Shown: positions 11,701 to 57,531 of the stretch, piece by piece
Layout: every line of letters starts with the position of its first letter
Position numbering within the stretch: position 1 is the first letter of the stretch
Assembly (NCBI GenBank): GCA_019828565.1
Contig: JAHDYR010000067.1
Span: forward strand, 62,001 to 126,000
Direction of reading: 5' to 3'
DNA: 64,000 bases
DNA from: Carpediemonas membranifera BICM
Taxonomy: Eukaryota; Protista; Fornicata
The notes under the pieces: model-generated
What the model was told of the DNA's origin: nothing
The model's input: the letters and a program-made list of their open reading frames with translations, nothing else
Databases searched by the model: none
Program-made: the position numbers and the translations under genes

Positions 11701-12246
11701 GTGTCCGTTGGTGTAAATGGTGATCATTTGATTGAAGTCGTGGCGGTGGATCTGATCAAGAGTCTGCTGTGCTTCTGGCAGGACCTTGGGCAGTTGGCCA
11801 TCCATCGGGATACGGCCAGGCAATAAACGGGGACAACTGTCAAGCGGGATTAGAGAATGTTACGGGGCGGCACTAGACCCTTTCAGTACCCCAACCAGAC
11901 TGCCCAATGTGGATCTTGCCAGACATGGCGGCCTCTCTCGACATCATGGCCACCTCTGAGTTTGTCAGGGGGTTCGACAGAGGACTGGGTCGACTAGTGC
12001 CACAGCGGATGGTCAGCAACCAGGGCGTAACCCCAGACACTGTAACAAGCTTTGTCTCAGCAGCTCCCCTTCACTCCTCTCCTCTCACAACGTCGTAGTC
12101 TTCGTTGGTCAACGTGACATGGACACCGCCGCCACTGTACTACTACCCCTGCTACACACTCTATCCACCGTCCGATGGCCGCGTGTGATTGCGTCACGGG
12201 GGTGAGGTTGAGACGACCAGCCGAGACTATCGCAACCTTGCCAACA

Positions 12247-13086
12247 ATGGCCGATCGCCACACCATGGATCATGCACTGAAAGAGCCCAAGAAGGACTTC
12301 GTCACTGCCTTTATTTCGCATGCAGTCGCACGGTCGCTCCATTTATCTGAGTATGCTGGCGTTGGAAAGGCTGCATTCATTGGCGGCATGTCTGGCCTCT
12401 CCACGGCCCTGTTCTTCACCGCACCGACCACCTCCGATGAGCTACAGAAGTTCCTCGCCGTTTCCCGTGGCGTGTTCAACTCCTCCGCCTTTGTCCAAGC
12501 ATCCGATGCTCTATTCCGCGTTCCCTTCCTCACCCCACAGTGCCGACGCGGCAACTTCCGCAACTTCTACACCCACAGCTTCTTCTGCGGCGCTGCAGTG
12601 GGCGTGTCCGGTGAGTTGTGGTCCAACTACGTGTACGGCGCGCCCCATCACGTTACGTGGGCAAATATTGTCATCACCAACGCCCTAGGCAACATGATGT
12701 GGGATACCTTCTTCCATGCCTCATGTGCTGTGGGTCGAAGGGTGAGAGGCGCATTCCCGGCAATCCCGCAGCTCCCCGTCGCCGTGCTCTCTCTTATCAT
12801 GGGTGGCGTAGGAGGTTCGTTCGGTGCCAACCTGGCCTCGTATGGCATGCACAAGTACTACCATGTCATGGCTGATCGCGGTTCGGCCCGCAATAAGGAC
12901 CTTCACGACAGGATGGTGGCCTACTACGGTTTCGAACACGAGCCTGTCATCAGGGATTGGGCATTCGCGTGCATGCGGAAGTGTATGAACAGCGCCGTGT
13001 ACTTCACAGTCTTCGGTACTCTCACCGACGGCATGGATCGCCTTGGCAAGAGATTGTTCCGCCCCATGAATCGCAAGAACATATGA
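12247..13086 (+). CDS. Glycine-rich multi-pass membrane protein, possibly a very divergent mitochondrial-carrier-like protein (~279 aa)
   Basis: Host-like codon usage. Hydrophobic GxxxG helices (AAFIGGMSG, SFFCGAAVG, SLIMGGVGG) and a terminal helix MRKCMNSAVYFTVFGTL. Alternative start at 12175. Confidence 0.55.
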   Translation: MADRHTMDHALKEPKKDFVTAFISHAVARSLHLSEYAGVGKAAFIGGMSGLSTALFFTAPTTSDELQKFLAVSRGVFNSSAFVQASDALFRVPFLTPQCRRGNFRNFYTHSFFCGAAVGVSGELWSNYVYGAPHHVTWANIVITNALGNMMWDTFFHASCAVGRRVRGAFPAIPQLPVAVLSLIMGGVGGSFGANLASYGMHKYYHVMADRGSARNKDLHDRMVAYYGFEHEPVIRDWAFACMRKCMNSAVYFTVFGTLTDGMDRLGKRLFRPMNRKNI

Positions 13087-13338
13087 GACTTTTACTTTTG
13101 AATATGAATACTTCATCGCTTCTGCTGTTTTGTGTGTTGTTTTGCTGTTGATTTGCCAGCTCTCGGCTTGGAAAAATGGTATTGTTCTCATTCGCCATGA
13201 AGAAGACTGATATTGGTTAAAAAGAGACTATATGATCGGTAACCAAGCCAGCATGGGTAGAATACGGCACAGGATTCGAGAACCGTCCCCTGTGGCGCTC
13301 ATGCCGTCCACTTTGCGATCAATGACTCCAGTTCGAGT

Positions 13339-13462
13339 TGTGATTTGCTCGGGGTGAACGGCCCGTGAGGGGAGATAAAGGCAACAAGAAGTTGGTACGT
13401 GCAATGCCGCGGCAGTGCTGGGGGAGTGAATGTACACCATAAATGGAGTTACGTAATTCGCA
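13339..13462 (-). repeat. 3' LTR (124 bp)
   Basis: TGTGATTTGC...GTAATTCGCA on the plus strand, identical base for base to 18484-18607. Confidence 0.95.
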
Positions 13463-13473
13463 CTGCCTTTCTC
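13463..13473 (-). promoter_or_regulatory. Polypurine tract (PPT) of the retrotransposon
   Basis: GAGAAAGGCAG on the minus strand directly abuts the 3' LTR. Confidence 0.7.
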
Positions 13474-13671
13474 GATAGCTGGCCAAGCTTGGACGGCTGA
13501 ACGTGAGGGACGAACGCAAATCACCTGCGGACGATCTTCGACACTCCTTTGGGTCGTTCAATCGTGCATCGGATGATCCTTTAGCGCACCTGGGCGTCCC
13601 CAGGCACTGGAGATTATACTGACGGGCCAAGGAAGCGTTCGGAAAAGGCCTTAGTCTATCAGTTAGTACAA

Positions 13672-16600
13672 TTACTGGTACTTAGGGTTTGGTTGGCGGT
13701 TTCTCGTTGGATAGCGGCGTGGAGCGTCAAATTCTTTCGCTGTTGTGCTCGGGGGCACTCTGGGCTTCGTCTGGCGTGTTCTCCGAGGGTACCGGTCGCG
13801 AGGCTTCCGTACATCAGACGGATCTGGATGTTTGGGCTCAGCAGCGCGGTTCTCTGTCCGACGCTCTACTGTCTTTGGCGCCGCGTGCTTTTCTAGGACG
13901 TCGGCTGATACAGTAGTTCCTGCCCCTCTCCCGGGGTCGGTCCTCGGTGGACTAGACTCGTGGTCCCGTCCTCCTGGGGTTTCCCGTGGTGAGGGCTCCT
14001 TGCGCTTCTCCTCCAGCTCCCCAGTTGGGGTGGCACTTGGCACCGAGTCGGGAGGGTTAGCGGGCGGATCGAGTGGATGCCTGGGTCGACGCTGTCTGCG
14101 GTACTTCGCGACTCCGGGGAGCTTAGCGAAGCCATCATTGGCGTCAATGAACTTTGCCAAGGTGTCTCGGCCAGCAAGCTGGTCGATGTTGATCCACGTG
14201 GCCTCTGATTTGGTCATGCCAGCCCAACGTACGAGCATGCGGTAGGGCGAACTGCCCCGTTGCTGTTCGTAGTCAAGAATCTCTTCCGGCACAGACCGGT
14301 AGAAATCTTGTGCAGCGATACTACGAGCTTGCTCTTCGGTTAGGGCTTGCACTGGTGACCAGTACAGGGAGGAGCCGTGGCGAATGATCTTGACAGTGTC
14401 CTGGATGAGGTCTTGGAGTTCGTACCTGTCTCTGGTGAGGGTTTGGAGGACCCGATACGGGCCCCGGACTGGCAGGTCCAGACGGCCTCTGGCCCTGGGT
14501 TCTAAGGAGACGTACACATAGTCACCGGGGGCAGGCCTAGGCCCGGCGACGGGGAGATGGTCATCTTTCCACTTGCTCCTCTCAGCCAGCGCGTCGTTGA
14601 CTGTTTTCAGCAGTCTTTTCGCCCGGTCAATAGTCAGTCTGGGGTTGTTCTGACTGCGCTTGAGGTCGGTTGTTGTGGCGAGTAGAGCTGCGTGGGCTTG
14701 GAAAGGTGAGAGGTCCTCGAGTGGAGCGGATGGGGTATCGTTGACTGCGGTCTGGGCGTCGCTCAGCACTTGTGTCCAATCCTCATCTCGCACTTCGTGT
14801 ACGAGCTCTCTGAGCGCCCGGTTGACGGACCGGATCACGTTTTCCACGGCCCCGTTGGCTTCGTGGCGCAACGGAGTGGTCACGTGGTGGTCGATGCCGA
14901 GTAGTTCAAGCTCTCTTGAGAAAGCTAGTCCGAACTGGGACCCGCTATCGGTTTGGACTTGTTGGGGTAGCCCCCAGTGGCGTATGTAGCCACGTTTGAG
15001 AGCGTTCAAGGCCTCCGCTGTACTAGAGTTTTGCATTGGCTCCAGCACTGTGAAGCGAGTGGTAGGCTCTTTGATCACCAGGACGTGAGTGAATCCTTGG
15101 TGCTCGGGGAGAGGACCTAGGGTGTCCACGTGCAAGTGATGGATGGACCCGACAGGTGCGCGGGAGTCTGGCAAGTGTCGCTGGTCGATTGGGACCGGCT
15201 CGAGCCGGGACTTGGAGCAGATTGGACACGCGAGCAGGCGCTCGGCGATGTCGTGCTTGATCCCGCTCCAGAGCGTATCGTCCTGCTTCAGCCGGCGGAA
15301 CATGGCTTTGGCCTTGCGGTGATACTTGCCGTGTGCGCGGTCGAGAAGGTCCTGTTTCGCCTCTTCCGCAAGCTGATCTGGTAGGTCGGAGTCTTGGGAG
15401 GTGTGGCTGAGGCTACACAGGTACGCGGACGGGGTGATATCCACTGAGGGCCGCGGCCAATACCGTGACAGTGTGTCGGCCACAATGTTGTCGGCCCCCG
15501 GAATGTGCGTGATGGAGATGTCGAGGTCAGCAATCTCCGTGAACCAGCGACGGACCTTACGGTTGTTCGTCGCCGAGGCGAGAACGAGAAAGGCAGTGCG
15601 GTGGTCAGTCTCGACATCGACGTGATGTCCTTGAACGATGTCCTCGAACTTGAGGAGGCTGGCAACGACGCCATAAGCCTCTTGCTCAATTGTAGGCCAG
15701 GCAGCCATCGTGTCGTTGAACTGCTTCGAGTAGAACGCGATGGTTTGTTCTGACCCATCGTCTGCCAGCTGGAACAGCTGGGCTCCGATGCCGTGTACGG
15801 AGGCGTCTGTCCGGAGACGGAACGGCCGGTCATAATTGGGATGAGCGAGGTCCTCGGGCTCCGCGATGATGGCTTTGAGGGTCTCGAACGCTTTCTGATG
15901 GTCTCTCGTCCAGGACCACTGGGTTCCCTTGCCGAGGAGGGTGTTCAGAACCCGGGTCTGGTCTGCCATGTGGGGTAGGAATGGCCGGAGGTAGTTGACC
16001 AGGCCGAGGAATGAGCGCAGCTCACGTGGGTTCGATGGTGGTTTGATTGTAGCGATGGCGTCGATGCGGTCCTGTGAGATGTGGACACCCGACTCGTCTA
16101 CAAGAAGACCGAGGATCTTGGCGCGCTTAGTGCCGATGATAGACTTCTTGGCCTTCAGACGGAGGCGGCATTGAGCACAGCGGGTGAGGAACCGGTCGAC
16201 CCGATCATAGAGTTCCTCAGGAGTTCTCCCGAGGACTACTGCATCGTCAATGAAGACGAACAGCTCGTCACGGTCGATCGAGTCTTGGAAGACCTTGGTA
16301 ACTGCCCGCTGGAAGGCGGCTGGCCCATTGCGCACTCCAAACGGAAGTCGGTTGAACTCATAGAGTCCGTTGGGTCCCTGGAATGCTGTCAGGTGTCGGG
16401 AACTCTCGGCAACCTTCAGCTGGTGGAACCCTGACGTAAGGTCGAAGGTCGCGAAGTACTTGACCCCACGGCACTTCTCCCTCAGTTTGTCTGGCGACAA
16501 CATGGGGTAGGCGTCGGCTCTCGTAACTGCATTCAGCTGGCGGTAGTCAACGCAGAAGCGCCAAGTATCGTCTGGCTTCCGGATCAGCAGAACTGGAGCT

Positions 16601-18453
16601 GCCCAGTCCGACGACGACGGGCGGATGATGCCCTTCTGGAGCATGTCGCGGATGCCGTCCCTAACCGCCTCAGTCATCTTTGGGTTCTTGTGGCGGTACG
16701 CTGCCCGAACTGGGATGCTGCCAGGGTTGAGGACGAACTCGAATTCGCCCAGATCGGCGCCGCCTGGATGGGGGTCGCCGAAGGTGTTCTGAGCGACGTG
16801 CCTGCCCAGGAGGTCCTCAAAGCGGCCACGTACCTCGCTAGGGAGGTCGTCGGAGATGGTGGGTTGACCCTCGTCGGCGCTGATGAGGTGATTGAAGAGC
16901 CGACCGAGGTCGAGGTTGGCTACCTCCTCCTGCATAGTTGTAGGCGGGCTTGCCAGGTACTCTGGGGTCAGACCCAGGGTGGCAAGGACCCTCTGGCCAA
17001 CAATGCAATCGACTGACAGTTGGTGAACCGCCAGGACGTGCACTGACAGCTTGGCACTGGCGGGGAAGTGGTCACCCCACAGCTCCACGTCCACGACTCC
17101 GTGATGGGTAACTCGGAGCGGGTTCGCGGGGTCTGCGGTTGCGATGACCTCGTTGCCAGCGGCGGCAGGAAGGTGGAGCCGTATGGCAAGTGATGTCGGT
17201 ACCAGGACATCAATGCCTAGGGCGCCCGTGTCCAGCAGAGCATTCGTCTCGAGGCCGGAGCCAAGAAACTTGAGCTGGGCGTAGTACCCTTGGGAGGTGC
17301 CGCCTGAGCACAGACCACACAACAAGTACTGGGAGGCTTTATTGGCCTGCCCACGGCACTCGGCGTTGGTGTGGTTGGCCCAGGGGTGGATGAGGCACAG
17401 GCTGTCAGGGGCGGAGGTCCGCACGGCAGAGATGCCGAAGAGGTGGGCGGCCTCGGAGGGGTCCCTGACCATGGCGGTGATCGCCTGCGCCACTCGGGTA
17501 GCTCGGGCACAGATCTCCGTGTCCTCGATCTGAACGCCATGACGCACCCAGTGGTCCAAATCGTCCTTCAGGTTTGCCATGATCCGCGTAAACGCAGAAC
17601 TGATGGGAAGGGACGAGGGGACCCTGGTTTGGCGAGTGCGTCGGCGGGTGAGGCGGAGCGGGGCCAGAGCTGTGGTGAGAGCACTCAAGGACAACGTGGA
17701 GCGACGGCTTGAAGTTGAGGAGTCGTCGCTAAACTGCACCTCCCGAGGGGCAAAAGCTGAGCGGTGCAGAGGGATGGCGGCTTCGCCCACGGAAGGATGA
17801 TCCACAGAGGCTTGCGACCACTGATTGGAAATCGTGGATACGAGATAGCTGGATGCTCCTGCGCGCTGAAGCGTCTTACGCAGGATCTTTGGCGCATCCC
17901 ACAGCGAGAGGGTGCTGCGGTCCAGGAGCAGGCGGAGCGTGTCCAGGCGGCCAAATTCCGCCAGGAAGGCGCTCAGGGAAGTGGCAGAGAGCGGCTTGCC
18001 CGGTGTGATTTCCTCGGCTGCCGAGAACCAGGCTCCGCGGCTGTTAACGACCTGTCGGGTGGCGTCTCTTGCGGCAGTGGTCAGGACTTCGTTAGCTAGG
18101 CGAGCCCATTGGCAACGCCTTACCAGCTTAGTGGCCCTTTCGATCTGGGAGGATCTCAGGTCGGGGCACTCGGCGTGTAGCTGGTCGAGGAAGCTCTCGA
18201 GGTCGTCCCGCATGGGGGTCAGATGCGTGGCGCTGATCTCTGGCATCCATCCCAGCTGACGACCATTGGCGGCCGTCGGGAGGATCGTGTCGGGGGCGCC
18301 GAGGTCCGCGTCCGTGGAAATGCGATCGAGCAGGTCGACAAAGAACCGGACAAGGCTCAGCGGACTGTCAAACTCGGCTGGTTGCTGGGCGGTGGCGACG
18401 GAGGAATGAAGCAGCGTGCTCAAGGAGGTTTTCTTGTTACTTTTCATGGCCAT
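13672..18453 (-). CDS. Gag-Pol polyprotein, single ORF, ~1593 aa
   Basis: Zinc knuckle variant CLIHPWANHTNAEC, protease LLDTGA, RT (WRFCVDYRQLN, LPFG...P, VFIDD), RNase H (TDAS, EQEA, TDH), integrase (H..H..CPIC, HVDTLGP, TDSGSQF, E; GPY), chromodomain EEILD...MLVRWAG...EATW. No stops or frameshifts. The first ATG after the 5' LTR is at 18453. Confidence 0.95.
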   Translation of the reverse strand: MAMKSNKKTSLSTLLHSSVATAQQPAEFDSPLSLVRFFVDLLDRISTDADLGAPDTILPTAANGRQLGWMPEISATHLTPMRDDLESFLDQLHAECPDLRSSQIERATKLVRRCQWARLANEVLTTAARDATRQVVNSRGAWFSAAEEITPGKPLSATSLSAFLAEFGRLDTLRLLLDRSTLSLWDAPKILRKTLQRAGASSYLVSTISNQWSQASVDHPSVGEAAIPLHRSAFAPREVQFSDDSSTSSRRSTLSLSALTTALAPLRLTRRRTRQTRVPSSLPISSAFTRIMANLKDDLDHWVRHGVQIEDTEICARATRVAQAITAMVRDPSEAAHLFGISAVRTSAPDSLCLIHPWANHTNAECRGQANKASQYLLCGLCSGGTSQGYYAQLKFLGSGLETNALLDTGALGIDVLVPTSLAIRLHLPAAAGNEVIATADPANPLRVTHHGVVDVELWGDHFPASAKLSVHVLAVHQLSVDCIVGQRVLATLGLTPEYLASPPTTMQEEVANLDLGRLFNHLISADEGQPTISDDLPSEVRGRFEDLLGRHVAQNTFGDPHPGGADLGEFEFVLNPGSIPVRAAYRHKNPKMTEAVRDGIRDMLQKGIIRPSSSDWAAPVLLIRKPDDTWRFCVDYRQLNAVTRADAYPMLSPDKLREKCRGVKYFATFDLTSGFHQLKVAESSRHLTAFQGPNGLYEFNRLPFGVRNGPAAFQRAVTKVFQDSIDRDELFVFIDDAVVLGRTPEELYDRVDRFLTRCAQCRLRLKAKKSIIGTKRAKILGLLVDESGVHISQDRIDAIATIKPPSNPRELRSFLGLVNYLRPFLPHMADQTRVLNTLLGKGTQWSWTRDHQKAFETLKAIIAEPEDLAHPNYDRPFRLRTDASVHGIGAQLFQLADDGSEQTIAFYSKQFNDTMAAWPTIEQEAYGVVASLLKFEDIVQGHHVDVETDHRTAFLVLASATNNRKVRRWFTEIADLDISITHIPGADNIVADTLSRYWPRPSVDITPSAYLCSLSHTSQDSDLPDQLAEEAKQDLLDRAHGKYHRKAKAMFRRLKQDDTLWSGIKHDIAERLLACPICSKSRLEPVPIDQRHLPDSRAPVGSIHHLHVDTLGPLPEHQGFTHVLVIKEPTTRFTVLEPMQNSSTAEALNALKRGYIRHWGLPQQVQTDSGSQFGLAFSRELELLGIDHHVTTPLRHEANGAVENVIRSVNRALRELVHEVRDEDWTQVLSDAQTAVNDTPSAPLEDLSPFQAHAALLATTTDLKRSQNNPRLTIDRAKRLLKTVNDALAERSKWKDDHLPVAGPRPAPGDYVYVSLEPRARGRLDLPVRGPYRVLQTLTRDRYELQDLIQDTVKIIRHGSSLYWSPVQALTEEQARSIAAQDFYRSVPEEILDYEQQRGSSPYRMLVRWAGMTKSEATWINIDQLAGRDTLAKFIDANDGFAKLPGVAKYRRQRRPRHPLDPPANPPDSVPSATPTGELEEKRKEPSPRETPGGRDHESSPPRTDPGRGAGTTVSADVLEKHAAPKTVERRTENRAAEPKHPDPSDVRKPRDRYPRRTRQTKPRVPPSTTAKEFDAPRRYPTRNRQPNPKYQ

Positions 18454-18483
18454 AGAGAGAGTTAATCGATTAATTAACGTTAA

Positions 18484-18607
18484 TGTGATTTGCTCGGGGT
18501 GAACGGCCCGTGAGGGGAGATAAAGGCAACAAGAAGTTGGTACGTGCAATGCCGCGGCAGTGCTGGGGGAGTGAATGTACACCATAAATGGAGTTACGTA
18601 ATTCGCA
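18484..18607 (-). repeat. 5' LTR (124 bp)
   Basis: Identical to 13339-13462; flanked by TSD GAGT at 18608-18611. Confidence 0.95.
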
Positions 18608-18618
18608 GAGTCGAAGCG

Positions 18619-21039
18619 ATGGCTCCAGCTCAAAAGGGACCATCGAACGAGGACCAGCGTGTTTGGTATGTCCATTAGCCTTCTCACTGCTTATATAGGC
18701 TTGAGGATGCCATGAGCACCGTTAAGCAGAACGCTGTGCGCCTCCGCCGTGCCATCGAGCAGGATAATTACCAGGAGGTCATCAAATTCGCCACTCTTGT
18801 GCTCAACGAGCTTCGTACATCCATGCTAAGCCCGAAGCGCTACTACCAGCTCTATTCCGCCGTCTTTACCGAGCTGAACTATGTCGAGCAATACTTTGAG
18901 GAATACTGCCTGACACACAGCATCCAGGACGTCTACGACCATGTTCAGCAGTGCGGCAACATCATTCCCCGCATCTACCTCCTGATCACTGCCGGCGTCG
19001 TCTTTCTCCGCCGGGCGGATTCCCCCGCCGCCGACATCATGAAGGACCTGGTTCAGATGGCCAAGGGAATCCAGCACCCAGTCAGAGGTCTGTTCGTCCG
19101 CCACTACCTCAACCAGGCGACCAAGAACGCGTGGAAGCCCGATGCCTCCGAGATGCAGGGCACTGTAGAGATTGTCCTATCAAACTTCGCGGAGATGACT
19201 CGACTCTGGACCCGCCTCGCCACAGCCCCCGCCTACACCATGAGCAGGCACCGTGCCGAGGAGGAGCGTACCAGCCTCGAGGAGCTCGTCGGCCACAACC
19301 TTGTGCGACTGGTCAACCTCGACGGCATGGACGCCCTCGCATACCGCAAGTACGCCATCCCCGCCATCACTCGGCATGTACTGAGCTGCCATGACCGTAT
19401 GGTGCAGTCCTACCTCCTCGACACTATTGTCCAAGGTGTCCCGGACGAGTTCCACGCACAGACCCTTCCGTACCTCGTCTCCATATTCAGAGCTGTGCTC
19501 GACACGGTGCCCGTGGTTCCTGTGATGGTCTCGCTGGTGGACAGGCTGGCCTCCTTTATGAACTCTCGGGCGGACGACCCAGGCATGCTCGAGAGTCTAG
19601 TGGAGCTCAGCGAGGAGACGCTCGCAGTGAACCAACTTGGCGGTGACTTTGAGGACATCGACACCAACGACATCATACCCGTCCCCGCGGCCCCCGAGCC
19701 CACCGACGACGAGCCCCAAGCGTGCTTCCTCCTTCGACTGGCTGGCATGCTCGAGACTGTTATCGAGCAGAGACCCACACTGGGAGCCGAGGACGCTCTG
19801 AGGGTTCACCTGGCTTTGCTCAAGGCCACACTGAGCGTCATGCCTGACCGTATCGACATGATCTGCCCTGCTTTCAGCCGTTGCCGTGCGGACGTCACCG
19901 CCATCCACGGCGCCCACCCTCTTCTGGAGCAGGTTCTTACTGCACCCATCATGCATATCGGAAGCGTGCTCAACCTGGCATCCATCGAGGGCTATGACTC
20001 CGTCCTTGCTGTAGCCTCACCGCAAGTCAAGCTTGCCGTAGCCACGATGACATGCGAGCGGGTTGTCGCCGATGCCCAGCCGCTGTCCCGCCCCGCCGAA
20101 GTCCAGCGTGTGTTGACGATGGCGCTGCCGCTGCTCAGTGGTGCTGACGACGAGGACGAGGTCAGCGAGCATTGCGGGTATGTGGCCGGCATCGTAACCC
20201 TCATCGACAACCCCGACCCCGCTGTCGCCATCGAGCTGCTCGACATCACGCGGTCATTCATCCAGAAGGGGGATCTCGACCACGTCAAGGTTGCCCTGCA
20301 GCCCCTCATGCATAAGGCCCTCGACATCGCTCTCAGTGCAGGGCTCGGTGGAGTTACGACCGACCCGCTGTTCCGGTTCGCCACAGAGATAATCCACCTC
20401 ATGGCTGAACTGGACGTCGACACCGCGCTGCACCTGCAGATCCTGGCCGCACTAACGTCAGACAAGGTGGGGCTGGATGATGTTACATTCGACTTCGTCG
20501 GCCTGGCCATCACGACCGTGCAGGATAAGATTAGTGGGTCGAGACTTCAGTTTGAGGGGCTACTGGAATGCGTATCTGCTATCACGACGCTCACTGCGAT
20601 GTCACCTGAGAACTACGAGACCATTGCTACCAATCTGACACATTTTGCATCACGGTTTATCACAAGGCAGGATCAGTGCCGCGCGGTGGCCGCATGTGCG
20701 TCTCTCTGGTGGAATGGTGTCCTCCGCAAGGGCGACAGGGTGCTGGAGTGCATCAAGAGGAGTCTGACCGCAGCAGACAAGTGTAAGACCTCCATGGTAT
20801 CAGAGCAGTACTACTACCCCCTGATCCTCGAGATGATCGACCACACAATGTTCTTCATAGACCGGGGATGCCCCGAAGTCACCCCGGAGCTGCTGTCAGG
20901 CCTAATGGCCGTCGCTGACGCTGGGCTGAGTGAGTCGACGGAGACGCACTCACAGCACTACGCTGCGATCAAGACGCATGTGTCGGCAAAGGTGGATGCG
21001 GGGGTAGAGGCGTACTGTGCGGTTGTCAGTCACGAGTAA
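18619..21039 (+). CDS. VPS35: Retromer subunit VPS35; join(18619..18665,18699..21039)
   Basis: ELRTSMLSPKRYYQLY, VQQCGNIIPRIYLLITAG and GIQHPVRGLFVRHYL. A 33-nt intron (18666-18698, GTATGT...CTTATATAG) restores the typical N-terminus MAPAQKGPSNEDQRVWLEDAMSTVKQNA. Confidence 0.93.
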
Positions 21040-26620: not shown

Positions 26621-28831
26621 ATGAGAATTCACCTCCAATTGGACCTTGATTTAGAGCCTGATGAACTCAATAGCTATGCTGGTGCCTTTGTTGTCGCGCT
26701 TCAGCGTATCACTGAGGAACTGCAGCAAAAGTCCACTGAGATGAAGGCCAGCAAGACTGAAAGCGAACCATCTGCACCGATTTCTCCTAAGAGATTCACT
26801 GACACCAAGCCTCATGAAGGTTCGCCCCCTCGAGACCTCACGGACCGGGAGTTCATCCATGAGTTCCTCGAGGCCCTTCGTAACGACGAGCACCACGCCC
26901 GCACCATCCCTGCGCTGACGTCTTTCCTCCTCTCGCCTAAAGAGAGCCCCCGACGCCTTGAACGCCTCCAGATGCTGCTGGAGCTTCTGTTCAACAACTT
27001 CCTGCTGAACATCAACATCACGGAGCAGGTGCTGCACCCCCTCTTCCGGGGCCTCTTCCTTCTGCCCGCCACGTTCCAGCAGGTCATCCACAACTTCTTT
27101 GTCACCCGCGTCCATCACCGTCTCGTGAAGACTATCCGTGTGTACCACAAGCAGCCCTCGGAGCTCCTCAGCAACATCGTCCTGCTGTCCAGGGCCTCCT
27201 GCATGCTCGTGTCGTCCGGCTACCTCGCCCCCAAGCTTGTATTCAAGACTGTTGTTGACTTCCTTGACTCTGAACAGTCGTGCATCCCCGCAATCGTCCT
27301 GTTCTCGTTTCTGGACGGCATCTGCTCCGACCGACTCGAGCAGTCCGTCCCCCCGCAAACCCTGGCCGACCTCCGCCGCCGTGTGAACGGGCTTCTGTCG
27401 GACCCGCGGATGTCGGACATCCAAGCGAAGCTAACCATGCTCGCAGGGAGGGTTGGTGCTACTGAGACAGCAGACCCACGGGGCCCCGAGTCCGTCCTGT
27501 CTGATGCCGACACGTGCGACTCCGACGATTCGTTGGATGCGGCCTCGCTGTCGGTGACACCCAGGTTCACTGCGAGGGATGTTATTGAGATACCAGACCT
27601 GGATCCAGTGGACGGCGTAGCATCCGATGATCCACTCGATGTTGTCCAGGAGGCCCGTGTCATGTCAGACTTTACCGAGAGCAGCTTGTCAAATGATGAC
27701 ATCACCGATGACGAATGCACGGACTCTGACGAGAGCGACGCCACGACTGCTGGCACTGCTGACAGGGGTGTGCCCGTCCCCTCTCTGCTCACCAGATACC
27801 AGCGGTACCGCACGGCCGGAAAGAAGGCCACCCCCAAGGAACGCATCCAGGCGAAGAAGTACACCGACGCCTGCTCCCTCCACGGCCACACGACGCTCGC
27901 GCGGTCCATCGCCATCGACGAGTGCGGCTCCGTCGTCTCTGTCGGCCCCGACAAGGTTGTCTCCCACTCTGAGCATGGGCTCCCATGCGACTCGTTCAAG
28001 GTCCAGCTGCCCGCCGTGGAGGGCTCGGGCGACGACCAGATCCGCACCCCGGTCCTGGTGGCGGCGTCGGGTCCCTACCTCGCCGTTGCCGCGGTCGCCC
28101 TGGACATCCATAAGTTCGGATGGGCCACTGTCTCCGTCTACCGTCGCAGCGGGGGCGGCCACTGGACGTACCTGGCCACGACCCGGCTCGACAACGTCCC
28201 CGCCGTGACAGCACTGGCTGGTGTCCGAGGCGGGTTCATCGCAGCCACATGCAGGCGTCAGGGCGTCGATCTTGTGCCCTCGCTTGACCTGGTCGCCGTC
28301 AATACCGAGGGCGGCTGCGTCTTTACTCGCCTGTCTGCGGTTGGCCCCCACGAGATCTCGAACATGGCGGTCGCCCCCGACGGGAAGCACTATTCCTTCG
28401 TGACGACGGACGGAGCTCTTACGGTCGGCTCCATCGACAAGGCCTCCCACATCGCGGTCGACTCGAACGCCACTGCGGGCCACCCTGTGATCAGTATCAC
28501 CATGCCGGCCGAGGACACTGTGGTGTTCGGGACCACGGAGGACGGCGGCATGGTCTGCGTCTACTCGGCCAAGGAGAGGGCCGTTGTACAGCACGCGGCC
28601 ACCCAGCAGACACCGCTGTCAATCGTCTCGGTGGACAGTGATAGGCTGGCGGTATCGACGGACGCGAACCTCGTCATTTATCACACACCATCGAATTCGA
28701 TCACCAACGGCCCTCTACGCGAAGTCTACAGCGGTGGTGTGGTGTGGAATAAGACGACTGGCGTCATCAGCACGATGGTGGGGGAGAAGGCGCGGGTTGC
28801 CCAGTTCAAACCGTGCTGGGACATGGAGTAA
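26621..28831 (+). CDS. Hypothetical protein: helical N-domain, acidic linker, C-terminal WD40-like beta-propeller
   Basis: 736-aa ORF with host codon bias; LHGHTTLARSIAID and repeated beta-strand units in the C-terminal half. Confidence 0.6.
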   Translation: MRIHLQLDLDLEPDELNSYAGAFVVALQRITEELQQKSTEMKASKTESEPSAPISPKRFTDTKPHEGSPPRDLTDREFIHEFLEALRNDEHHARTIPALTSFLLSPKESPRRLERLQMLLELLFNNFLLNINITEQVLHPLFRGLFLLPATFQQVIHNFFVTRVHHRLVKTIRVYHKQPSELLSNIVLLSRASCMLVSSGYLAPKLVFKTVVDFLDSEQSCIPAIVLFSFLDGICSDRLEQSVPPQTLADLRRRVNGLLSDPRMSDIQAKLTMLAGRVGATETADPRGPESVLSDADTCDSDDSLDAASLSVTPRFTARDVIEIPDLDPVDGVASDDPLDVVQEARVMSDFTESSLSNDDITDDECTDSDESDATTAGTADRGVPVPSLLTRYQRYRTAGKKATPKERIQAKKYTDACSLHGHTTLARSIAIDECGSVVSVGPDKVVSHSEHGLPCDSFKVQLPAVEGSGDDQIRTPVLVAASGPYLAVAAVALDIHKFGWATVSVYRRSGGGHWTYLATTRLDNVPAVTALAGVRGGFIAATCRRQGVDLVPSLDLVAVNTEGGCVFTRLSAVGPHEISNMAVAPDGKHYSFVTTDGALTVGSIDKASHIAVDSNATAGHPVISITMPAEDTVVFGTTEDGGMVCVYSAKERAVVQHAATQQTPLSIVSVDSDRLAVSTDANLVIYHTPSNSITNGPLREVYSGGVVWNKTTGVISTMVGEKARVAQFKPCWDME

Positions 28832-29007
28832 TGTCGATGTGCAGTTTAAAGAAGTATCCTTTTCGAAAAGGAGGGACCTACACCCTTCAACATACGCTCA
28901 CTTAAACGGCAACAAAGCTGTTCCAAGGCGGTTGGAGTCCAGTTATAGTACGCACGTTGAGTTCAGTCAGAGTGGCAGAAGGGCGTTGAGCTCCAATTCT
29001 TCTGGAT

Positions 29008-30129
29008 ATGGCTGAAACACGCCAGAAACGCATTTGTAGGTGCAAATTGGATGATGGCAGTGAGTGCGGCAAGCGATTCAGCAAGGATGGCGAGCTTCAC
29101 GTCCACATCGAAGACTTTCACCGCCGAATCCCATGCAAGGCGAATAGGTGCGGCCATGGCTTCGATACCGAGGATCTGATGATCGCTCACATGCGCCAGC
29201 AGCACAAGACCTGCGTCTGCAAAGAATGCGAGTTCGTTCGTCACAATGCTAACACAGCACTACACTGGGACAAACAAGGGCGATGTGGAGAAGCATTACA
29301 TCGCCACCCACAACGATAAGTGCAATAAGGTGACGCGCCCGAAGAAATGGTGCCCTGACTGCAAGAAGGTCTTCGCCAAACTCGACCGCCACATCGCCAC
29401 CGTCCACCCTGAGCGCCTTGAGGAGAACGAGGCGCTCAAGAAGCGCTTTTGGTGTGAAGAGTGCGAGAAAGCATGGGCAAATCTCGCGGTACACAGAATA
29501 CAGCAGCACGGCCCGAAGACCAACTGCCCAGTCGACGGATGCGAGTTGCAAACGGCCGACATGAGCATTTTGAAAAGGCATCTCAAACAGAGGCACAAGC
29601 TGAGCGCCGACGCGGCTGAAGACCTGATGTACCAGCTCCGCCAAGCCCAGGCGGCCAAGACCGGGAAGACCATCGAGCGCCAGTACCGCCGCCACGACCT
29701 GCCGCCCCTCGAGACCCGCGCCGGCTTCATCGAGATCGACGCCGACTCAGAGCTCGACTGCCCCCTCTGGGGCCGCGAGGTCGTCAACAAGAGCACGCAC
29801 AGGCTCGCCAGCTTCGGGGTCGACCTGACCCACCACGCCGGCCCGATAAAGTGGATCAACCACTCGCACACGCCCAACTGCAACCTATTCGTGCTGCCGA
29901 CCAAGGACGGCACCGCCGTTCGGCACCTGACCGCGGCCGAAGAGATCGTGCTATTCGCCGACGGCCCCGGCAAGTGGACCTCGCAGCAGCTGACGTGCCG
30001 CTACGACTTCCCCCACGACGTCCCGCTGCCCCCCTGGTACGACCCCATCACGGCGATGGCCTCGGGCCTGCGCCAAGAAGCCGTATGTCAAAAAGAAGCC
30101 CTTGCCGCGCAGAGGGTGAGTGTAAAGGA
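29008..30129 (+). pseudogene. Internally deleted copy of the C2H2-PHD-SET-like gene at 55475-57144
   Basis: Near-identical to the reverse complement of 55465-57175, but lacks 390 bp (PHD plus N-terminal SET half) and 161 bp (frameshifting), and has indels around the intron. Confidence 0.75.
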
Positions 30130-44152: not shown

Positions 44153-44376
44153 TTTTTTCACGAAAATTCTAGAGTCGAGCAAGTCTCGATAGAAAAGAGT
44201 CCGCTGAATCGTTAACTAGAGTACGCTTTGAGGGCTCTAAGCACCCTCATAGCCGAAGTACGGTAACGGCTGTATAATCTGATCGTTAGTGGGGCATTTG
44301 TCGACAAACCTGCAATGTTGTCTCAATCCACGATCAAATAGCTTCAATAACTAACATCAAGAGCCCGGAAGCTCAT
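44153..44376. repeat. 224-bp direct repeat, copy 1
   Basis: Matches 45345-45568 with 2 substitutions (offset 1192 bp). Confidence 0.92.
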
Positions 44377-45344: not shown

Positions 45345-45568
45345 TTTTTTCACGAAAATTCTAGAGTCGAGCAAGTCTCGATAGAAAAGAGTCCGCTGAA
45401 TCGTTAACTAGAGTACGCTTTGAGGGCTCTAAGCACCCTCATAGCCGAAGTACGGTAACGGCTGTATAATCTGATCGTTAGTGGGGCATTTGTCGACAAA
45501 CCTGCAATGTTGTCTCAATCCACGATCAAATAGCTTCAATAACCAACATCAAGAGCCCAGAAGCTCAT
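45345..45568. repeat. 224-bp direct repeat, copy 2
   Basis: Matches 44153-44376 with 2 substitutions. Confidence 0.92.
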
Positions 45569-49121: not shown

Positions 49122-52100
49122 TCACCGCCGGGTCAGCGTGACTCTGAGCTGGCGGGAAGACTGGAAGCGCTTGAGCCATGCCGCGTCATCCCCTACTCTA
49201 GAAAGGTCTGCAGCGCGTGGCGAGGCAGCACTAACAGGCCGGGTTTGCTCTGGCACCCTCAGCGTGGCAGCGGGGTTGGAGATAGGCTGAGGCATGATCA
49301 CAGCTGCGGGTATCTTGATCGGAGCGAGTACAACACCGACACTGGCCGCCAGCCGCTCAGTCCAGGCGAGACGCTCGGCAAGACTGTGGCGCTCAAGATG
49401 ATACTGCTCAATCCTCGCAGCAACCTTCGCACCGAGCCTATAGGTCTCCTCACCCTCAATCTCAGCTAGTACATTGGTCTCCCCCAGCAAGTGAGCTCGG
49501 GTGGACGCTAGTTGTTTGACTTCTGACTTGGCCCAACGCTCTTCTGACTTGATGAAGACGGCTACACGTGTCTCTGCATCCTTAGCTGCCTTCTCTTGCA
49601 GCTTTGTCATGTGTCGCTTTTGTCGGCTGATATTGGTGGCGATAATCTCTAAATCTCGGTGCCCCTTCTCAATCTTCTTCGAGATATCGTGACATTCAGC
49701 GGTCACCATCTGCCACTCTTCGTTGGCAGCCCCTAGAGCGTCCTGTTGCCGTTCCATCTTCGCTTTCATATCCTGTTGTTGACGCCGCAGCTCATCTCTC
49801 ATGCTCTCAGCTTCCTCGTCGATGCCGGCGAGCTCAGCCTTACGGGCTGCGATCTTCTGCTCAACCCTCACCAACTCCGCTTGTTTCGACTCTGTAACGC
49901 GTTGGGCTGCCTCGTACGCCCTTCGTTCGGCTGTCTCTACCTCCTGCTTGGCCCTGGCGATGTCCTCATCCATCTCTCTGAGAGTACTTCTCTTGGCGCT
50001 GATCTCGGCGTCTAGGCTGCTCTTAATCCGCTCATACTCCTTCGTCAGACGGGCCTTCTGGGTCTCAGCCGCGGCAGCTCTCGTCTCGAGCTCAGCGTTA
50101 GCCTGGCGGAGCTCCTCCTCGGTGGAGTCTAGCTCCTGTCGCGCAGTCGCCAGGTCATTGTTGAGACCTCTCACGCTCGACATCAGCGTATCTCTCTGCT
50201 GGGCGACTTGCTCTCGTTGACGATCGAGGGTCTCCTGCATCTCCGACTGTGCCCTGGAAAGCTCATCTTGCTGGGCCTCCAGGCTGGCGTTGACTGTTGC
50301 AAGTTCGAGGCGGCTGGATGCTACCTGCGCGGTGACCTCGGTCAGCTCGTGTTCGACAGTCTCGAGCTCAGCCTTGCGCTTCTGGGCAAGCTCAGCTTCG
50401 CGAAGCACAGAGCTGAGCTCCTTGCGCTTGGATTCAATCTCGTCGGTCAAGCCGTTCAGCGTGCGCTCGTGCTCGACCTTGGAAGATGTCTGCGACTCGC
50501 GGTTGCGAGAGATCGATGCCTTGAGGTCATCCAGCTCCGCCTTGTGCTCAGCGACTGCGCTGTCGAGTCTGTCGAGTTCGGAGCTGCGCTCAGCCTCGCG
50601 TGCAGCCACGGAAGAGTTGAGGGATGAAAGCTCGAGCTTGCTGGCGGTGACCTGCGCGGTGACCTCGGTTAACTCGGCCTCGACGCTGTCGAGCTTGGCC
50701 TTGCGCTCCTTGGCGAGGTCAGCCTCCTTCTGAAGTGATGCGAGCTCCTTGCGCTTGGTCTCGATCTCAGCTTTCAGGCCGCTGAGTGCAGCCTGCTGCT
50801 CGGTCTGTGACTCGCGGCTGCGAGTGATGGATGTCTTGAGATCTTCAAGCTCGGCCTTCTTACCCGCAACCTCGGCGTCAAGCTTCTGAAGATCGGAGCT
50901 GCGCTCGCTTTCCTTCACGGCGAGGGATGAGCCGATTGAAGAAAGCTCGCGTCTACTTGAAGTGAGTTGCGCGGTGACCTCGGTCAGCTCGTGTTCGACA
51001 GTCTCGAGCTCAGCCTTGCGCTTCTGGGCAAGCTCAGCTTCGCGAAGCACAGAGCTGAGCTCCTTGCGCTTGGATTCAATCTCGTCGGTCAAGCCGTTCA
51101 GCGTGCGCTCGTGCTCGACCTTGGAAGATGTCTGCGACTCGCGGTTGCGAGAGATCGATGCCTTGAGGTCATCCAGCTCCGCCTTGTGCTCAGCGACTGC
51201 GCTGTCGAGTCTGTCGAGTTCGGAGCTGCGCTCAGCCTCGCGTGCAGCCACGGAAGAGTTGAGGGATGAAAGCTCGAGCTTGCTGGCGGTGACCTGCGCG
51301 GTGACCTCGGTTAACTCGGCCTCGACGCTGTCGAGCTTGGCCTTGCGCTCCTTGGCGAGGTCAGCCTCCTTCTGAAGTGATGCGAGCTCCTTGCGCTTGG
51401 TCTCGATCTCAGCTTTCAGGCCGCTGAGTGCAGCCTGCTGCTCGGTCTGTGACTCGCGGCTGCGAGTGATGGATGTCTTGAGATCTTCAAGCTCGGCCTT
51501 CTTACCCGCAACCTCGGCGTCAAGCTTCTGAAGATCGGAGCTGCGCTCGCTTTCCTTCACGGCGAGGGATGAGCCGATTGAAGAAAGCTCGCGTCTACTT
51601 GAAGTGAGTTGCGCGGTGACCTCGGTCAGCTCGTGTTCGACAGTCTCGAGCTCAGCCTTGCGCTTCTGGGCAAGCTCAGCTTCGCGAAGCACAGAGCTGA
51701 GCTCCTTGCGCTTGGATTCAATCTCGTCGGTCAAGCCGTTCAGCGTGCGCTCGTGCTCGACCTTGGAAGATGTCTGCGACTCGCGGTTGCGAGAGATCGA
51801 TGCCTTGAGGTCATCCAGCTCCGCCTTGCGCTCAGCGACTGCGCTGTCGAGTCTGTCGAGTTCGGAGCTGCGCTCAGCCTCGCGTGCAGCCACGGAAGAG
51901 TTGAGGGATGAAAGCTCGAGCTTGCTGGCGGTGACCTGCGCGGTGACCTCGGTTAACTCGGCCTCGACGCTGTCGAGCTTGGCCTTGCGCTCCTTGGCGA
52001 GGTCAGCCTCCTTCTGAAGTGATGCGAGCTCCTTGCGCTTGGTCTCGATCTCAGCTTTCAGGCCGCTGAGTGCAGCCTGCTGCTCGGTCTGTGACTCGCG

Positions 52101-52763
52101 GCTGCGAGTGATGGATGTCTTGAGATCTTCAAGCTCGGCCTTCTTACCCGTAACCTCGGCGTCCAGCGTCCCGTCCTCACCATTGCTCGTCGTCTCCTTC
52201 AGCTCGTCCTTCGACGCACGGGTCGTGTCTGGCGAGAAGCTCAGGCGGCGTCGTCCACGGCTGGTAAGCTCATCGAGCTCATCTTCGATCGAGTCAAAGT
52301 CTACAGCATCCACCAAGCCGTCAATACCGGGCAAATCGAGCTCGGCCGGGGGTTGTTTCTTCCCACCGACTTCGAGGCTTTGTGTCATCCGCATACTCCT
52401 CTCGAGAAGAGGCTCGGCATCGGTCTTGGGCAGAGGAGTACGCATGCCGTCTCTGGTGCTCTTGAGCATCTCTTTCTTCGCCTTTTCCTGCTTGTACCGA
52501 TCCTTGAAGATCTTGTCGCAGGGGTGCTCCCACGTACTCTCCTGTGTCTCGAAGTTGAAGTAAAACACGTTGCTGTCGTTCGACTGGCATGGCTTCCAGT
52601 TCTCTGGGAGTGGCGTTTTGAGCGCATCGCGGGCAATATAGTACAAATCTTCGTCTTCTTCTGGAATACCGAGATATGTGGCATATTCCTTGATCTCCTC
52701 CTCGGTGGGCTCATAATTTGGATCAACCACCTCTTCTAGCACCTGAACAGAGTCGTCATTCAT
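49122..52763 (-). CDS. CEP164: CEP164-like distal-appendage protein (N-terminal WW domain plus long coiled coil), ~1213 aa
   Basis: VLEEVVDPNYEPTEEEIKEYATYLGI...LYYIARDALKTPLPENWKPC...FYFNFETQESTWEHPCD is the CEP164 N-terminal signature. First ATG at 52763. Confidence 0.8.
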   Translation of the reverse strand: MNDDSVQVLEEVVDPNYEPTEEEIKEYATYLGIPEEDEDLYYIARDALKTPLPENWKPCQSNDSNVFYFNFETQESTWEHPCDKIFKDRYKQEKAKKEMLKSTRDGMRTPLPKTDAEPLLERSMRMTQSLEVGGKKQPPAELDLPGIDGLVDAVDFDSIEDELDELTSRGRRRLSFSPDTTRASKDELKETTSNGEDGTLDAEVTGKKAELEDLKTSITRSRESQTEQQAALSGLKAEIETKRKELASLQKEADLAKERKAKLDSVEAELTEVTAQVTASKLELSSLNSSVAAREAERSSELDRLDSAVAERKAELDDLKASISRNRESQTSSKVEHERTLNGLTDEIESKRKELSSVLREAELAQKRKAELETVEHELTEVTAQLTSSRRELSSIGSSLAVKESERSSDLQKLDAEVAGKKAELEDLKTSITRSRESQTEQQAALSGLKAEIETKRKELASLQKEADLAKERKAKLDSVEAELTEVTAQVTASKLELSSLNSSVAAREAERSSELDRLDSAVAEHKAELDDLKASISRNRESQTSSKVEHERTLNGLTDEIESKRKELSSVLREAELAQKRKAELETVEHELTEVTAQLTSSRRELSSIGSSLAVKESERSSDLQKLDAEVAGKKAELEDLKTSITRSRESQTEQQAALSGLKAEIETKRKELASLQKEADLAKERKAKLDSVEAELTEVTAQVTASKLELSSLNSSVAAREAERSSELDRLDSAVAEHKAELDDLKASISRNRESQTSSKVEHERTLNGLTDEIESKRKELSSVLREAELAQKRKAELETVEHELTEVTAQVASSRLELATVNASLEAQQDELSRAQSEMQETLDRQREQVAQQRDTLMSSVRGLNNDLATARQELDSTEEELRQANAELETRAAAAETQKARLTKEYERIKSSLDAEISAKRSTLREMDEDIARAKQEVETAERRAYEAAQRVTESKQAELVRVEQKIAARKAELAGIDEEAESMRDELRRQQQDMKAKMERQQDALGAANEEWQMVTAECHDISKKIEKGHRDLEIIATNISRQKRHMTKLQEKAAKDAETRVAVFIKSEERWAKSEVKQLASTRAHLLGETNVLAEIEGEETYRLGAKVAARIEQYHLERHSLAERLAWTERLAASVGVVLAPIKIPAAVIMPQPISNPAATLRVPEQTRPVSAASPRAADLSRVGDDAAWLKRFQSSRQLRVTLTRR
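50326..52163 (-). repeat. Coding tandem repeat, 642-bp period, ~2.9 copies
   Basis: Blocks recur at 642-nt offsets (e.g. 50962 and 51604). I saw only two substitutions among the copies. Confidence 0.93.
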
Positions 52764-53066
52764 TTGGCTATCGAGATCTCGGACACGAGTTTTTGCCGTA
52801 TTCTGCGGCTTTTTGCGATGGTCATGGGCCACGCGCGCTGGGTCTGGAGACGGAATCTACTCAGGTAGTGGCCATGCTGACCGACTGTCTATTAGTATTG
52901 CTGACTCCAGGCTGAATTGGGACAAATTGTGCAGGAAGGGTCGAATAATGGATAGCTCTCTGTCTGTCTGTTACGGCACCAATACGCACCAGCACGTCCA
53001 ACTTGCGGAGGTACTGTATGATTGTATGACCGCCGCATTTTTAGAACAGAAACGCCAAATTTCTCA

Positions 53067-55474: not shown

Positions 55475-57144
55475 TCACCCTCTGCGTCTGCGCGGCAAGG
55501 GCTTCTTCTTGACATACGGCTTCTTGGCGTCGGCCTCGTGCTGCCAGGCGGCGCGCTCCTTGTTGAAGCTGGAGCGCAGGCGCTTGAAGTCATCCTTGAC
55601 GGCGTCGTGCTGCTCGACGGTCATGGGCCACGGAAGGCGGTCGGCCCACTCGCCGGCGGGCGTGCGGCCGAAGTCGGCGAAGATCTGGCGCAGGCCCGAG
55701 GCCATCGCCGTGATGGGGTCGTACCAGGGGGGCAGCGGGACGTCGTGGGGGAAGTCGTAGCGGCACGTCAGCTGCTGCGAGGTCCACTTGCCGGGGCCGT
55801 CGGCGAATAGCACGATCTCTTCGGCCGCGGTCAGGTGCAGAACGGCGGTGCCGTCCTTGGTCGGCAGCACGAATAGGTTGCAGTTGGGCGTGTGCGAGTG
55901 GTTGATCCACTTTATCGGGCCGGCGTGGTGGGTCAGGTCGACCCCGAAGCTGGCGAGCCTGTGCGTGCTCTTGTTGACGACCTCGCGGCCCCAGAGCACG
56001 AAGCGGCTGGGGCGGGTGGCCAGCTCGTCGTGGGGGACGCGCGGGCTTCGGAACACGGCGAGGCTGGCGCCCTTCGCGATCGTCGGGCAGCGCCGACTGG
56101 TGATGGTCAGGCTGAAGCCGAGCTCCTCGTCGCCGTTGCCGAGCACCGTGCGCGCCGCGTTGACGCTGCATGCGATGCCGAGGCGCTTGGTCATGTCGGC
56201 GGTAGCCTCGCGGGCCCGGATGCAGTGCGTGCAGCAGTAGTCGCAGCGGCAGGACGGGGCGATGCCGTGGACGCCGTGGTTCGAGGCGCAGCTGGCGTGG
56301 ACGGCACGTCCGCACAGCATGCGGCAGGGGACCATGTCGTCGCCGTCGGCCTGCTCGCCGCACACGTGACACGGCGGGGCGACGAGGGGGCAGTCGAGCT
56401 CTGAGTCGGCGTCGGTCTCGATGAAGCCGGCGCGGGTCTCGAGGGGCGGCAGGTCGTGGCGGCGGTACCGGCGCCCGATGGTCTTCCCGGTCTTGGCCGC
56501 CTGGGCTTGGCGGAGCGGGTACATCAGGTCTTCAGCCGCGTCGGCGCTCAGCTTGTGCCTCTTTTTGAGATGCCTTTTCAAAATGCTCATGTCGGCCGTT
56601 TGCAACTCGCATCCGTCGACTGGGCAGTTGGTCTTCGGGCCGTGCTGCTGTATTCTGTGTTCCCCGAGATTTGCGCATGCTTTCTCGCACTCTTCACACC
56701 AAAAGCGCTTCTTGAGCGCCTCGTTCTCCTCAAGGCGCTCAGGGTGGACGGTGGCGATGTGGCCGTCGAGTTTGGCGAAGACCTTCTTGCAGTCAGGGCA
56801 CCATTTCTTCGGGTGCGTCTCCTTATTGCACTTATCGTTGTGGGCGGCGATGTAATGCTTCTCCACATCGCCCTTGCTTGTCCCAGTGTAGCTGTGTTAG
56901 CGTTGTGGTGACGAACGAACTCGCATTCTTCGCAGACGCAGGTCTTGTGCTGCTGGCGCATGTGAGCGATCATCAGATCCTCGGTATCGAAGCCATGGCC
57001 GCACATATTCGCCTTGCATGGGATTCGGCGGTGAAAGTCTTCGATGTGGACGTGAAGCTCGCCATTCTTGCTGAATCGCTCGCCGCACTCGCTGCCATCG
57101 TCCAATTTGCACCTACAAATGCGTTTCTGGCGTGTTTCAGCCAT
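55475..57144 (-). CDS. Multi-C2H2 zinc finger, PHD finger and divergent SET-like domain protein; join(57144..56921,56891..55475), ~546 aa
   Basis: A 29-nt intron (56892-56920, GTTCGT...CTAACACAG) restores CEECDYTGTSKGDVEKH with exact C-x12-H spacing. PHD: CHVC...CRMLC...HASC...CDYC. SET-like motifs: KWINHSHTPNC and QQLTCRY. Confidence 0.75.
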
Positions 57145-57531
57145 ATCCAGAAGAATTGGAGCTCAACGGCCTTCTTCCTCTGTAGGGATTTCTCCGGACA
57201 TCGCAGAATCAGGACCGAATCAGGGATAATGCCGCGTCGATGGCCCAAACCAACCCTATAAACGTGCTTCCAATGCTTACTAGGCCTATTCTCAGAGCAG
57301 GCTGTCCCACCCCACCATCTCAACGCCGAGATTCAAAGCTGGTCTGCTTTAAACTGCGCAACGACCAGACAACCACACAACACAAAACCGACATCCTATC
57401 CTTTTGTCGTCGGCAAGGCTTGGGCATAGCAACACGCGCCTTCTGCCCCACCATCGTGCTGATGACTTTAACACGACAGACGCCTGCCAAGGCACACGTG
57501 ATGGAAATGAGAAGCATATGCACAATACAGT

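Follow-up and report, generated by a model that had tools for sequence, protein, structure and literature searches.

How does an LTR retrotransposon begin reverse transcription when the position of its primer-binding site offers no complement to a tRNA 3' end? The question is raised by a Ty3/gypsy element on the minus strand at 13339-18607 (5,269 bp) of the window, the 64-kb stretch of Carpediemonas membranifera DNA analysed here. Its LTRs, of 124 bp each and with TG...CA ends, lie at 13339-13462 and 18484-18607 and show 100% identity, a purine tract lies directly before the 3' LTR, and an ACTC duplication flanks the element on both sides. The domain order PR-RT-RH-IN was found, with RT, RH and IN identified by Pfam and the protease motif by eye (Table 1); two of the motifs are zinc-knuckle-like (aa 353-366) and aspartic-protease-like (the DTG at aa 408). 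The element sits 11 nt upstream of the likely ATG of VPS35 (18608-18619), a gene that runs in the opposite direction and whose start and intron were placed by eye.

Table 1. Parts of the Ty3/gypsy element, in window coordinates
Feature	Position	Strand	Remarks
5' LTR	18484..18607	-	124 bp; U3 ~nt 1-57, R+U5 ~nt 58-124, probable division from RNA 5' ends
Palindrome 1 ATTAACGTTAAT	18473..18484	-	starts on the last A of the LTR; primer-binding-site position; lineage-wide feature
Palindrome 2 TTAATCGATTAA	18462..18473	-	not conserved
Single gag-pol ORF, 1593 aa	13672..18453	-	ATG (18453) 31 nt past LTR end
Zinc-knuckle-like C-x2-H-x4-H-x4-C, aa 353-366	17356..17397	-	read from translation; no Pfam match
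Reverse transcriptase core, aa 624-783	16105..16584	-	RVT_1 E 2.7e-26
RNase H, aa 848-975	15529..15912	-	RT_RNaseH_2 E 2.5e-27, RT_RNaseH E 4.1e-23
Inverted copy (16 nt, exact) of PPT/3' LTR junction 13459-13474	15585..15600	+	within RNase H TDH motif
Integrase zinc-binding and core domains, aa 1031-1195	14869..15363	-	Integrase_H2C2 E 9e-5, rve E 2e-7
Chromodomain-like segment, aa 1388-1435	14149..14292	-	Chromo E 0.0021, below Pfam cut-off
Polypurine tract (PPT) GAGAAAGGCAG	13463..13473	-	precedes 3' LTR
3' LTR	13339..13462	-	same as 5' LTR; adapter-joined RNA 5' ends at 13405, 13400
Target-site duplication ACTC, 4 bp	13335..13338	-	other copy 18608-18611

The 5' LTR is followed by TTAACGTTAATTAATCGATTAAC, and a TGG-type site for a tRNA 3' end is absent after it. 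Direct reading of the minus strand from 18484 to 18461 (ATTAACGTTAATTAATCGATTAAC) confirmed the original prediction of two perfect 12-bp palindromes at this position, bridged by TTAATTAA and lacking TGG. The window contains only 18 palindromes among its 63,988 12-mers, so one that starts exactly on the last base of the LTR is far beyond chance. Contigs from runs X1 and X2 (one each; the runs are of equal size and perhaps one data set) span 17284-18513 with zero mismatched letters. No tRNA genes were found within the window, an Rfam scan gave a single weak match, far below threshold and inside gag, and an exact search of viral contigs for palindrome 2 plus leader returned 0 matches. Two other roles were considered for the site and rejected: that of a stop-codon linker, since the reading frame is open through it, and that of an AT-rich initiator of the kind used by host promoters, since no like motif was seen by eye ahead of 6 host genes.

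Relatives of the element were drawn from 85 loci recovered in scans with a 20-protein alignment and fetched with patterns from an alignment made in this analysis; they include metagenomic loci, 66 were assessable and 19 were too short. Under a strict rule (ACA plus a palindrome of at least 12 bp including the A, upstream of RT), the site is present in 28/66 assessable loci, compared with 2/71 loci bearing a tRNA-Met site. The latter belong to 82 loci fetched later, the other 11 of which include two strict positives: L166, the one later-fetched clade member in which the region is present, and L087, which lies outside the clade and was rejected as a true bearer, being a chance positive. Resampled upstream regions yielded 0-2 positives (30 resamplings) against 25/64 observed, a count that misses five circular loci. 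Where two diverging LTR copies fix the LTR 3' end (L015, L016, L017 and L028), a different perfect palindrome runs from the last A in each of the four loci. Many of the 38/66 loci failing the strict rule have shorter cores, CA for ACA or apparent 5' truncation, or lie outside the clade. No clear site was seen at L010, L055, L062, L069 or L071, L013 is without the terminal A-T pair, L003 (outside the clade) carries an ordinary ACA-T-TGG site, and neither of the two loci on genome contigs has the strict site.

A hand-picked set of 42 anchors, for which shorter cores and CA were allowed, contains 30 distinct cores of 8, 10 or 12 nt with 12 different centre tetramers, G being first in 33. The nine 8-nt cores among them are weaker evidence because a loose rule (CA + 8-nt core + T, or a core of at least 12) also matches 30/71 control loci. 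When the terminal pair was left unforced, a T came after the core at 36/42 upstream sites versus 8/18 in pol; the corresponding figure of 41/42 for terminal T is inflated by the way in which the anchors were found. Among close relatives (L007, L012 and L019) the letters of the site differ and its symmetry is kept. In the subclade of L072, L073 and L075 the palindrome reaches further into the LTR end, with CA or ACA paired, and the long ORF ends near RNase H. The overlapping palindrome 2, to which a role had also been ascribed, has a counterpart nearby in only 4/33 relatives (L024, L036 and the pair L053/L054), so that the overlap is particular to the family of the window element; judged across the relatives, the first palindrome and not the second is the common feature.

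The lineage carrying this feature was placed with trees of RT-RNase H, built without Tf1, sushi, Ty3, Skipper or microsporidian elements; the protein searches returned no sequence named as Tf1, sushi, Maggy, Tcn1 or Skipper. In the unrooted tree, 20 palindrome bearers and a protein of Aduncisulcus paluster are split at 100/100 from the 15 other rows. Rooting on six pararetrovirus-like contigs groups 16 bearers with 2 unscored rows in one clade (99/97), whose sister is formed by the gypsy matches from plants, algae and animals; within the clade the window element joins the Aduncisulcus protein (97/92), both on long branches. The wider group includes Dysnectes brevis and proteins with the ANDGO prefix, which we take to denote Andalucia. 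The window element is separated from plant and algal chromovirus-like elements, which are database matches and not curated lineage members, by 99/97 and 98/96 in the rooted tree and by 100/100 in the unrooted one. By this sequence comparison the palindrome bearers are a distinct protist Ty3/gypsy clade, apart from the sampled plant and animal gypsy matches. The Chromo match in the ORF is weak, reaching 18.4 bits (E 0.0021) against a cut-off of 25.1. Given the separation of the element's RT-RH from the chromovirus-like elements, its initial classification as a chromovirus is unsupported. Chromo matches occur in the C-termini of 14/39 relatives and are missing from many palindrome bearers, indicating that it is the palindrome that characterises the group, and not the chromodomain. 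For the subclade without a chromodomain, a protein search turned up no named host.

The identity of the two LTRs supports a recent insertion, and the reading frame is open, as the original prediction held in calling the element intact and recently active. Activity of this particular copy is unsupported; its RNase H motif is damaged, reading TDHRTAFLV in place of the TDHRNLTFL of its sister P0001. The two residues at the altered place are NL, SL, AL or PL in 309/319 motif matches among the fetched proteins. The motif is altered because the 16-nt inverted copy at 15585-15600, which covers the PPT and the first 4 LTR bases, sits inside it; about 0.003 such repeats are expected. This inverted copy may reflect a slip of reverse transcription in which the plus-strand primer region was captured, or an assembly error. 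P0001, the nearest database protein, is labelled Carpediemonas membranifera and is 98.7% identical over 1472 aa; its cluster has 2 members, and every other database match is near or below 39%. The predicted N-terminus of P0001 begins to match the window at palindrome 2 and shows no match at palindrome 1; no AG is available there for splicing, so the sister copy probably has another sequence in place of palindrome 1. The divergence of P0001 upstream of palindrome 2 and past aa 1472 suggests another 5' end or LTR, plus a frameshift in the tail.

Elsewhere in the window, an inverted duplication of ~1.3 kb (28763-30123 and 55477-57466, 83-100% identity) adjoins an ORF with an Arb2 domain, and a WW-domain coiled-coil ORF at 49125-52856 contains 642-nt internal repeats. 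A 224-nt direct repeat (44153-44376 and 45345-45568, 99% identity, 1192 nt apart), each copy of which carries the 12-bp palindrome TTTGTCGACAAA, is possibly a small non-autonomous LTR-type element or a tandem duplication.

A palindrome in RNA may fold back on itself or pair with a second molecule, and symmetry at its centre fits the two-molecule duplex and not the hairpin, because a hairpin loop gains nothing from it. Among sites picked solely for paired outer arms, the 4-nt centre is symmetric in 28/39 upstream sites versus 1/27 in pol. For the window palindrome the predicted energies are +2.3 kcal/mol as a forced hairpin and -10.1 kcal/mol as a duplex, and the leader is predicted to form a dimer of -44.3 kcal/mol against -34.2 for two monomers, a gain of ~10, with palindrome 1 as the intermolecular helix. 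Flanking the palindrome, U5 (GGCCGU) is predicted to pair with the start-codon region (AUGGCC) within 18453-18510. Such U5-leader pairing around the site shows a weak trend among the relatives (-5.99 vs -4.90 +/- 0.34; 10/5000 permutations). Self-priming by a hairpin was among the modes first suggested; it would take place in a single RNA cleaved on the 3' side of the palindrome. The arms can make a 4-5-bp stem ending on the last A of the LTR, and in a few GC-rich relatives the predicted folding energy is -1.4 to -4.7 kcal/mol, but the energy of the forced hairpin is 0 or positive in 26/34 anchors and this, together with the symmetric centres, makes cis priming a very improbable explanation. 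Pairing of two genomic RNAs, proposed alongside it, emerges as the best supported of the earlier ideas, from the predicted duplex and dimer energies and the symmetric centres.

Priming in the manner of Tf1, from the 5' end of the element's own RNA, calls for a complement of that end at the site. LTR sequence stops at 13400 in run X3 and at 13405 in X4 (LTR nt 63 and 58, both between C and A; one contig from each run, both runs from one sample) and continues as a loose end matching a published RNA adapter that is ligated to 5' phosphates, as given in the available text of PMC1838911 (also PMC4176332). X1, X3 and X4 are presumed to be RNA. These candidate RNA ends are likely transcription starts, and the LTR drives transcripts: the adapter-marked contig of X4 starts at LTR nt 58, leaves the 3' LTR and extends at least as far as 12800, antisense to a 303-aa ORF at 12175-13086. 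Another loose end at 13338 (X1 and X3) belongs to a second LTR insertion in the same organism with a different 3' flank.

The RNA 5' ends thus placed lie 62-67 nt upstream of the site, and no ~11-nt complement of either end was found at it, the ends being those of the two contigs from one sample; nor does any LTR window pair with it above chance. An 8-bp bulged pairing of site nt 4-11 is possible from nt 58 (-3.3 kcal/mol), and half-tRNA primers are reported in copia lineages in the accessible part of PMC6317226. The ensemble probability that the site pairs with the first 15 nt of the RNA is 0.0, however, the best-pairing LTR window does no better than shuffles (45/100 shuffled LTRs pair as well), and none of 34 anchors has an exact upstream complement of more than 7 nt. 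The original prediction drew attention to a bulged match close to where the LTR begins; it is likewise at chance level by the same 45/100 shuffles and is located in U3. Tf1-type priming is therefore unsupported, and a transcript 5' end pairing with the site, named beforehand as evidence that would count against a new mode, was looked for at nt 58 and 63 and was not found. As for tRNA halves, which in the mode of copia, Ty5 and Bianca would pair through the anticodon arm, the 30 different cores would each require a palindromic piece of tRNA. Self-priming from the RNA 5' end or from a tRNA half accordingly has little probability left, and the expectation that neither a tRNA 3' end nor Tf1-type pairing primes this element is upheld, with no TGG and no 5'-end pairing above chance; both are very unlikely.

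Across the clade, then, the site is symmetric, 10-14 nt long and in fixed register with the LTR end, and has neither a site for a tRNA 3' end nor a complement of the RNA 5' end. We propose, with a probability of roughly 0.5, that the palindrome on the last base of the LTR is a primer-position site that works by pairing of genomic RNAs, an RNase H cut and priming on the partner. Two genomic RNAs would pair through palindrome 1 in the predicted RNA-RNA duplex. By analogy with Tf1, one of the paired strands would then be cleaved by the RNase H of the element, at the 3' edge of the helix, and the 3'-OH so freed would prime copying of the U5-R of the partner RNA. The primer would thus come from the partner's own site and not from an RNA 5' end, in a geometry like that of Tf1, a 10-14-nt RNA duplex abutting U5, and the same duplex would double as a dimerisation contact. 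More speculatively, the conserved terminal A-U pair might position the cleavage or cause a single ribonucleotide to stay on the end of the DNA. The weak step of this proposal is that the donor keeps ~62-67 nt of R-U5, which plus-strand synthesis must halt before or remove, and if both RNAs are cut, the template is left without the site on which the second strand transfer depends.

The palindrome could instead be a contact for dimerisation or packaging only, like the retroviral DIS or the PAL sequences of Ty1, with a host RNA or a protein as primer. All the evidence for intermolecular symmetry fits such a contact, the weak trend of U5-leader pairing flanks the site, and Ty1 palindromes are proposed to mediate dimers in the portion of PMC4974528 available. 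A dimer signal need not begin on the last base of the LTR, however, and a fixed register and a length of 10-14 nt suit a primer; the retroviral DIS is also additional to a PBS (PMC5445492, as far as its available text goes), and none is seen here. A contact alone is therefore an unlikely account, if the strongest of the alternatives.

It is more doubtful still that the dyad works on DNA, as the site of a dimeric protein (a promoter element, or end processing by integrase or RT) or in plus-strand transfer. A perfect dyad is what a DNA-binding protein that acts as a dimer typically recognises, and the LTR does drive transcripts. Against this, the change of letters with retained symmetry in L007, L012 and L019 would not be tolerated by a protein that reads sequence, the RNA 5' ends lie upstream of the site by the distance given above, and priming would be left unexplained.

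Priming on a partner RNA, if true, would make genome dimerisation obligatory for initiation, and the retention of symmetry without letters offers a sharp genetic test of it. Beyond the single element, a deep protist-wide gypsy clade, sister to all other sampled gypsy, may supply its own primer from the co-packaged RNA; such mutual priming would be a third mode beside tRNA and Tf1, reached independently by GalEa copia elements. This wider reading is offered tentatively, at slightly under even odds. The palindrome bears on the ancestral priming mode in Ty3/gypsy, and it gives an easy means of recognising a large, as yet unnamed gypsy clade of protists, in which annotation based on tRNAs would score no primer site.

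The site is, on this analysis, real and a tRNA-free priming variant in LTR retrotransposons, for which a mechanism is proposed. The priming of LTR elements without a tRNA site is described as an open question for GalEa, Skipper and SM-Tcn1 in the published text available. No palindromic primer-position site in Ty3/gypsy was found in the literature covered, which consists mainly of open-access papers; the accessible parts of PMC10886601 and PMC2864245 contain no mention of a palindrome, and that of PMC11042837 has mentions in its reference list only. The claim of an undescribed priming mode is qualified by the palindrome already published, without a mechanism, for GalEa copia elements (PMC5445492, available text).

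In Tf1, Tf2 and Tj1 (Tf1/sushi/Tcn1), likewise tRNA-free, a short RNA duplex abuts the LTR end and the C-terminus is chromodomain-like (available portions of PMC7175516, PMC4600332 and PMC6317226). According to the accessible text of PMC7175516, the RNase H of Tf1 acts on an 11-bp RNA duplex at the same position, the cut falling between bases 11 and 12. Tf1 is primed by the 11 nt with which its own RNA begins, on a site that is non-palindromic, whereas the RNA 5' ends of the window element do not pair with its site. Skipper of dictyostelids, compared by description only, is a chromodomain-bearing protist gypsy that likewise lacks both a TGG and a complement in the LTR and for which novel priming is suspected, but it has a polypyrimidine tract in place of a palindrome and two ORFs (PMC5006619, in the part available). 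The PAL or tRNA-palindrome sequences of Ty1 and the retroviral DIS resemble the site as palindromes proposed to join two genomic RNAs, and differ in lying beside a normal tRNA site and not being fixed to the LTR end (PMC4974528, in its accessible sections). The Conserved Hairpin Site of fungal GalEa Ty1/copia elements, as set out in the available text of PMC5445492, shares with the window element a short post-LTR sequence that is palindromic with the last A of the LTR, the absence of a PBS and of a U5 complement, and a suspected role in priming whose mechanism is given as unknown. GalEa has in addition a second complementary segment, CHSeq2, 12-41 bp downstream with one mismatch (PMC5445492, same text), of which no counterpart was found in 34 anchors, the best candidates having 2-7 mismatches. 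GalEa is a copia and the window element, by its domain order, a gypsy, and while the GalEa site is described as 10 bp long with two main sequences, that of the protist clade spans 10-14 bp and takes 30 different cores.
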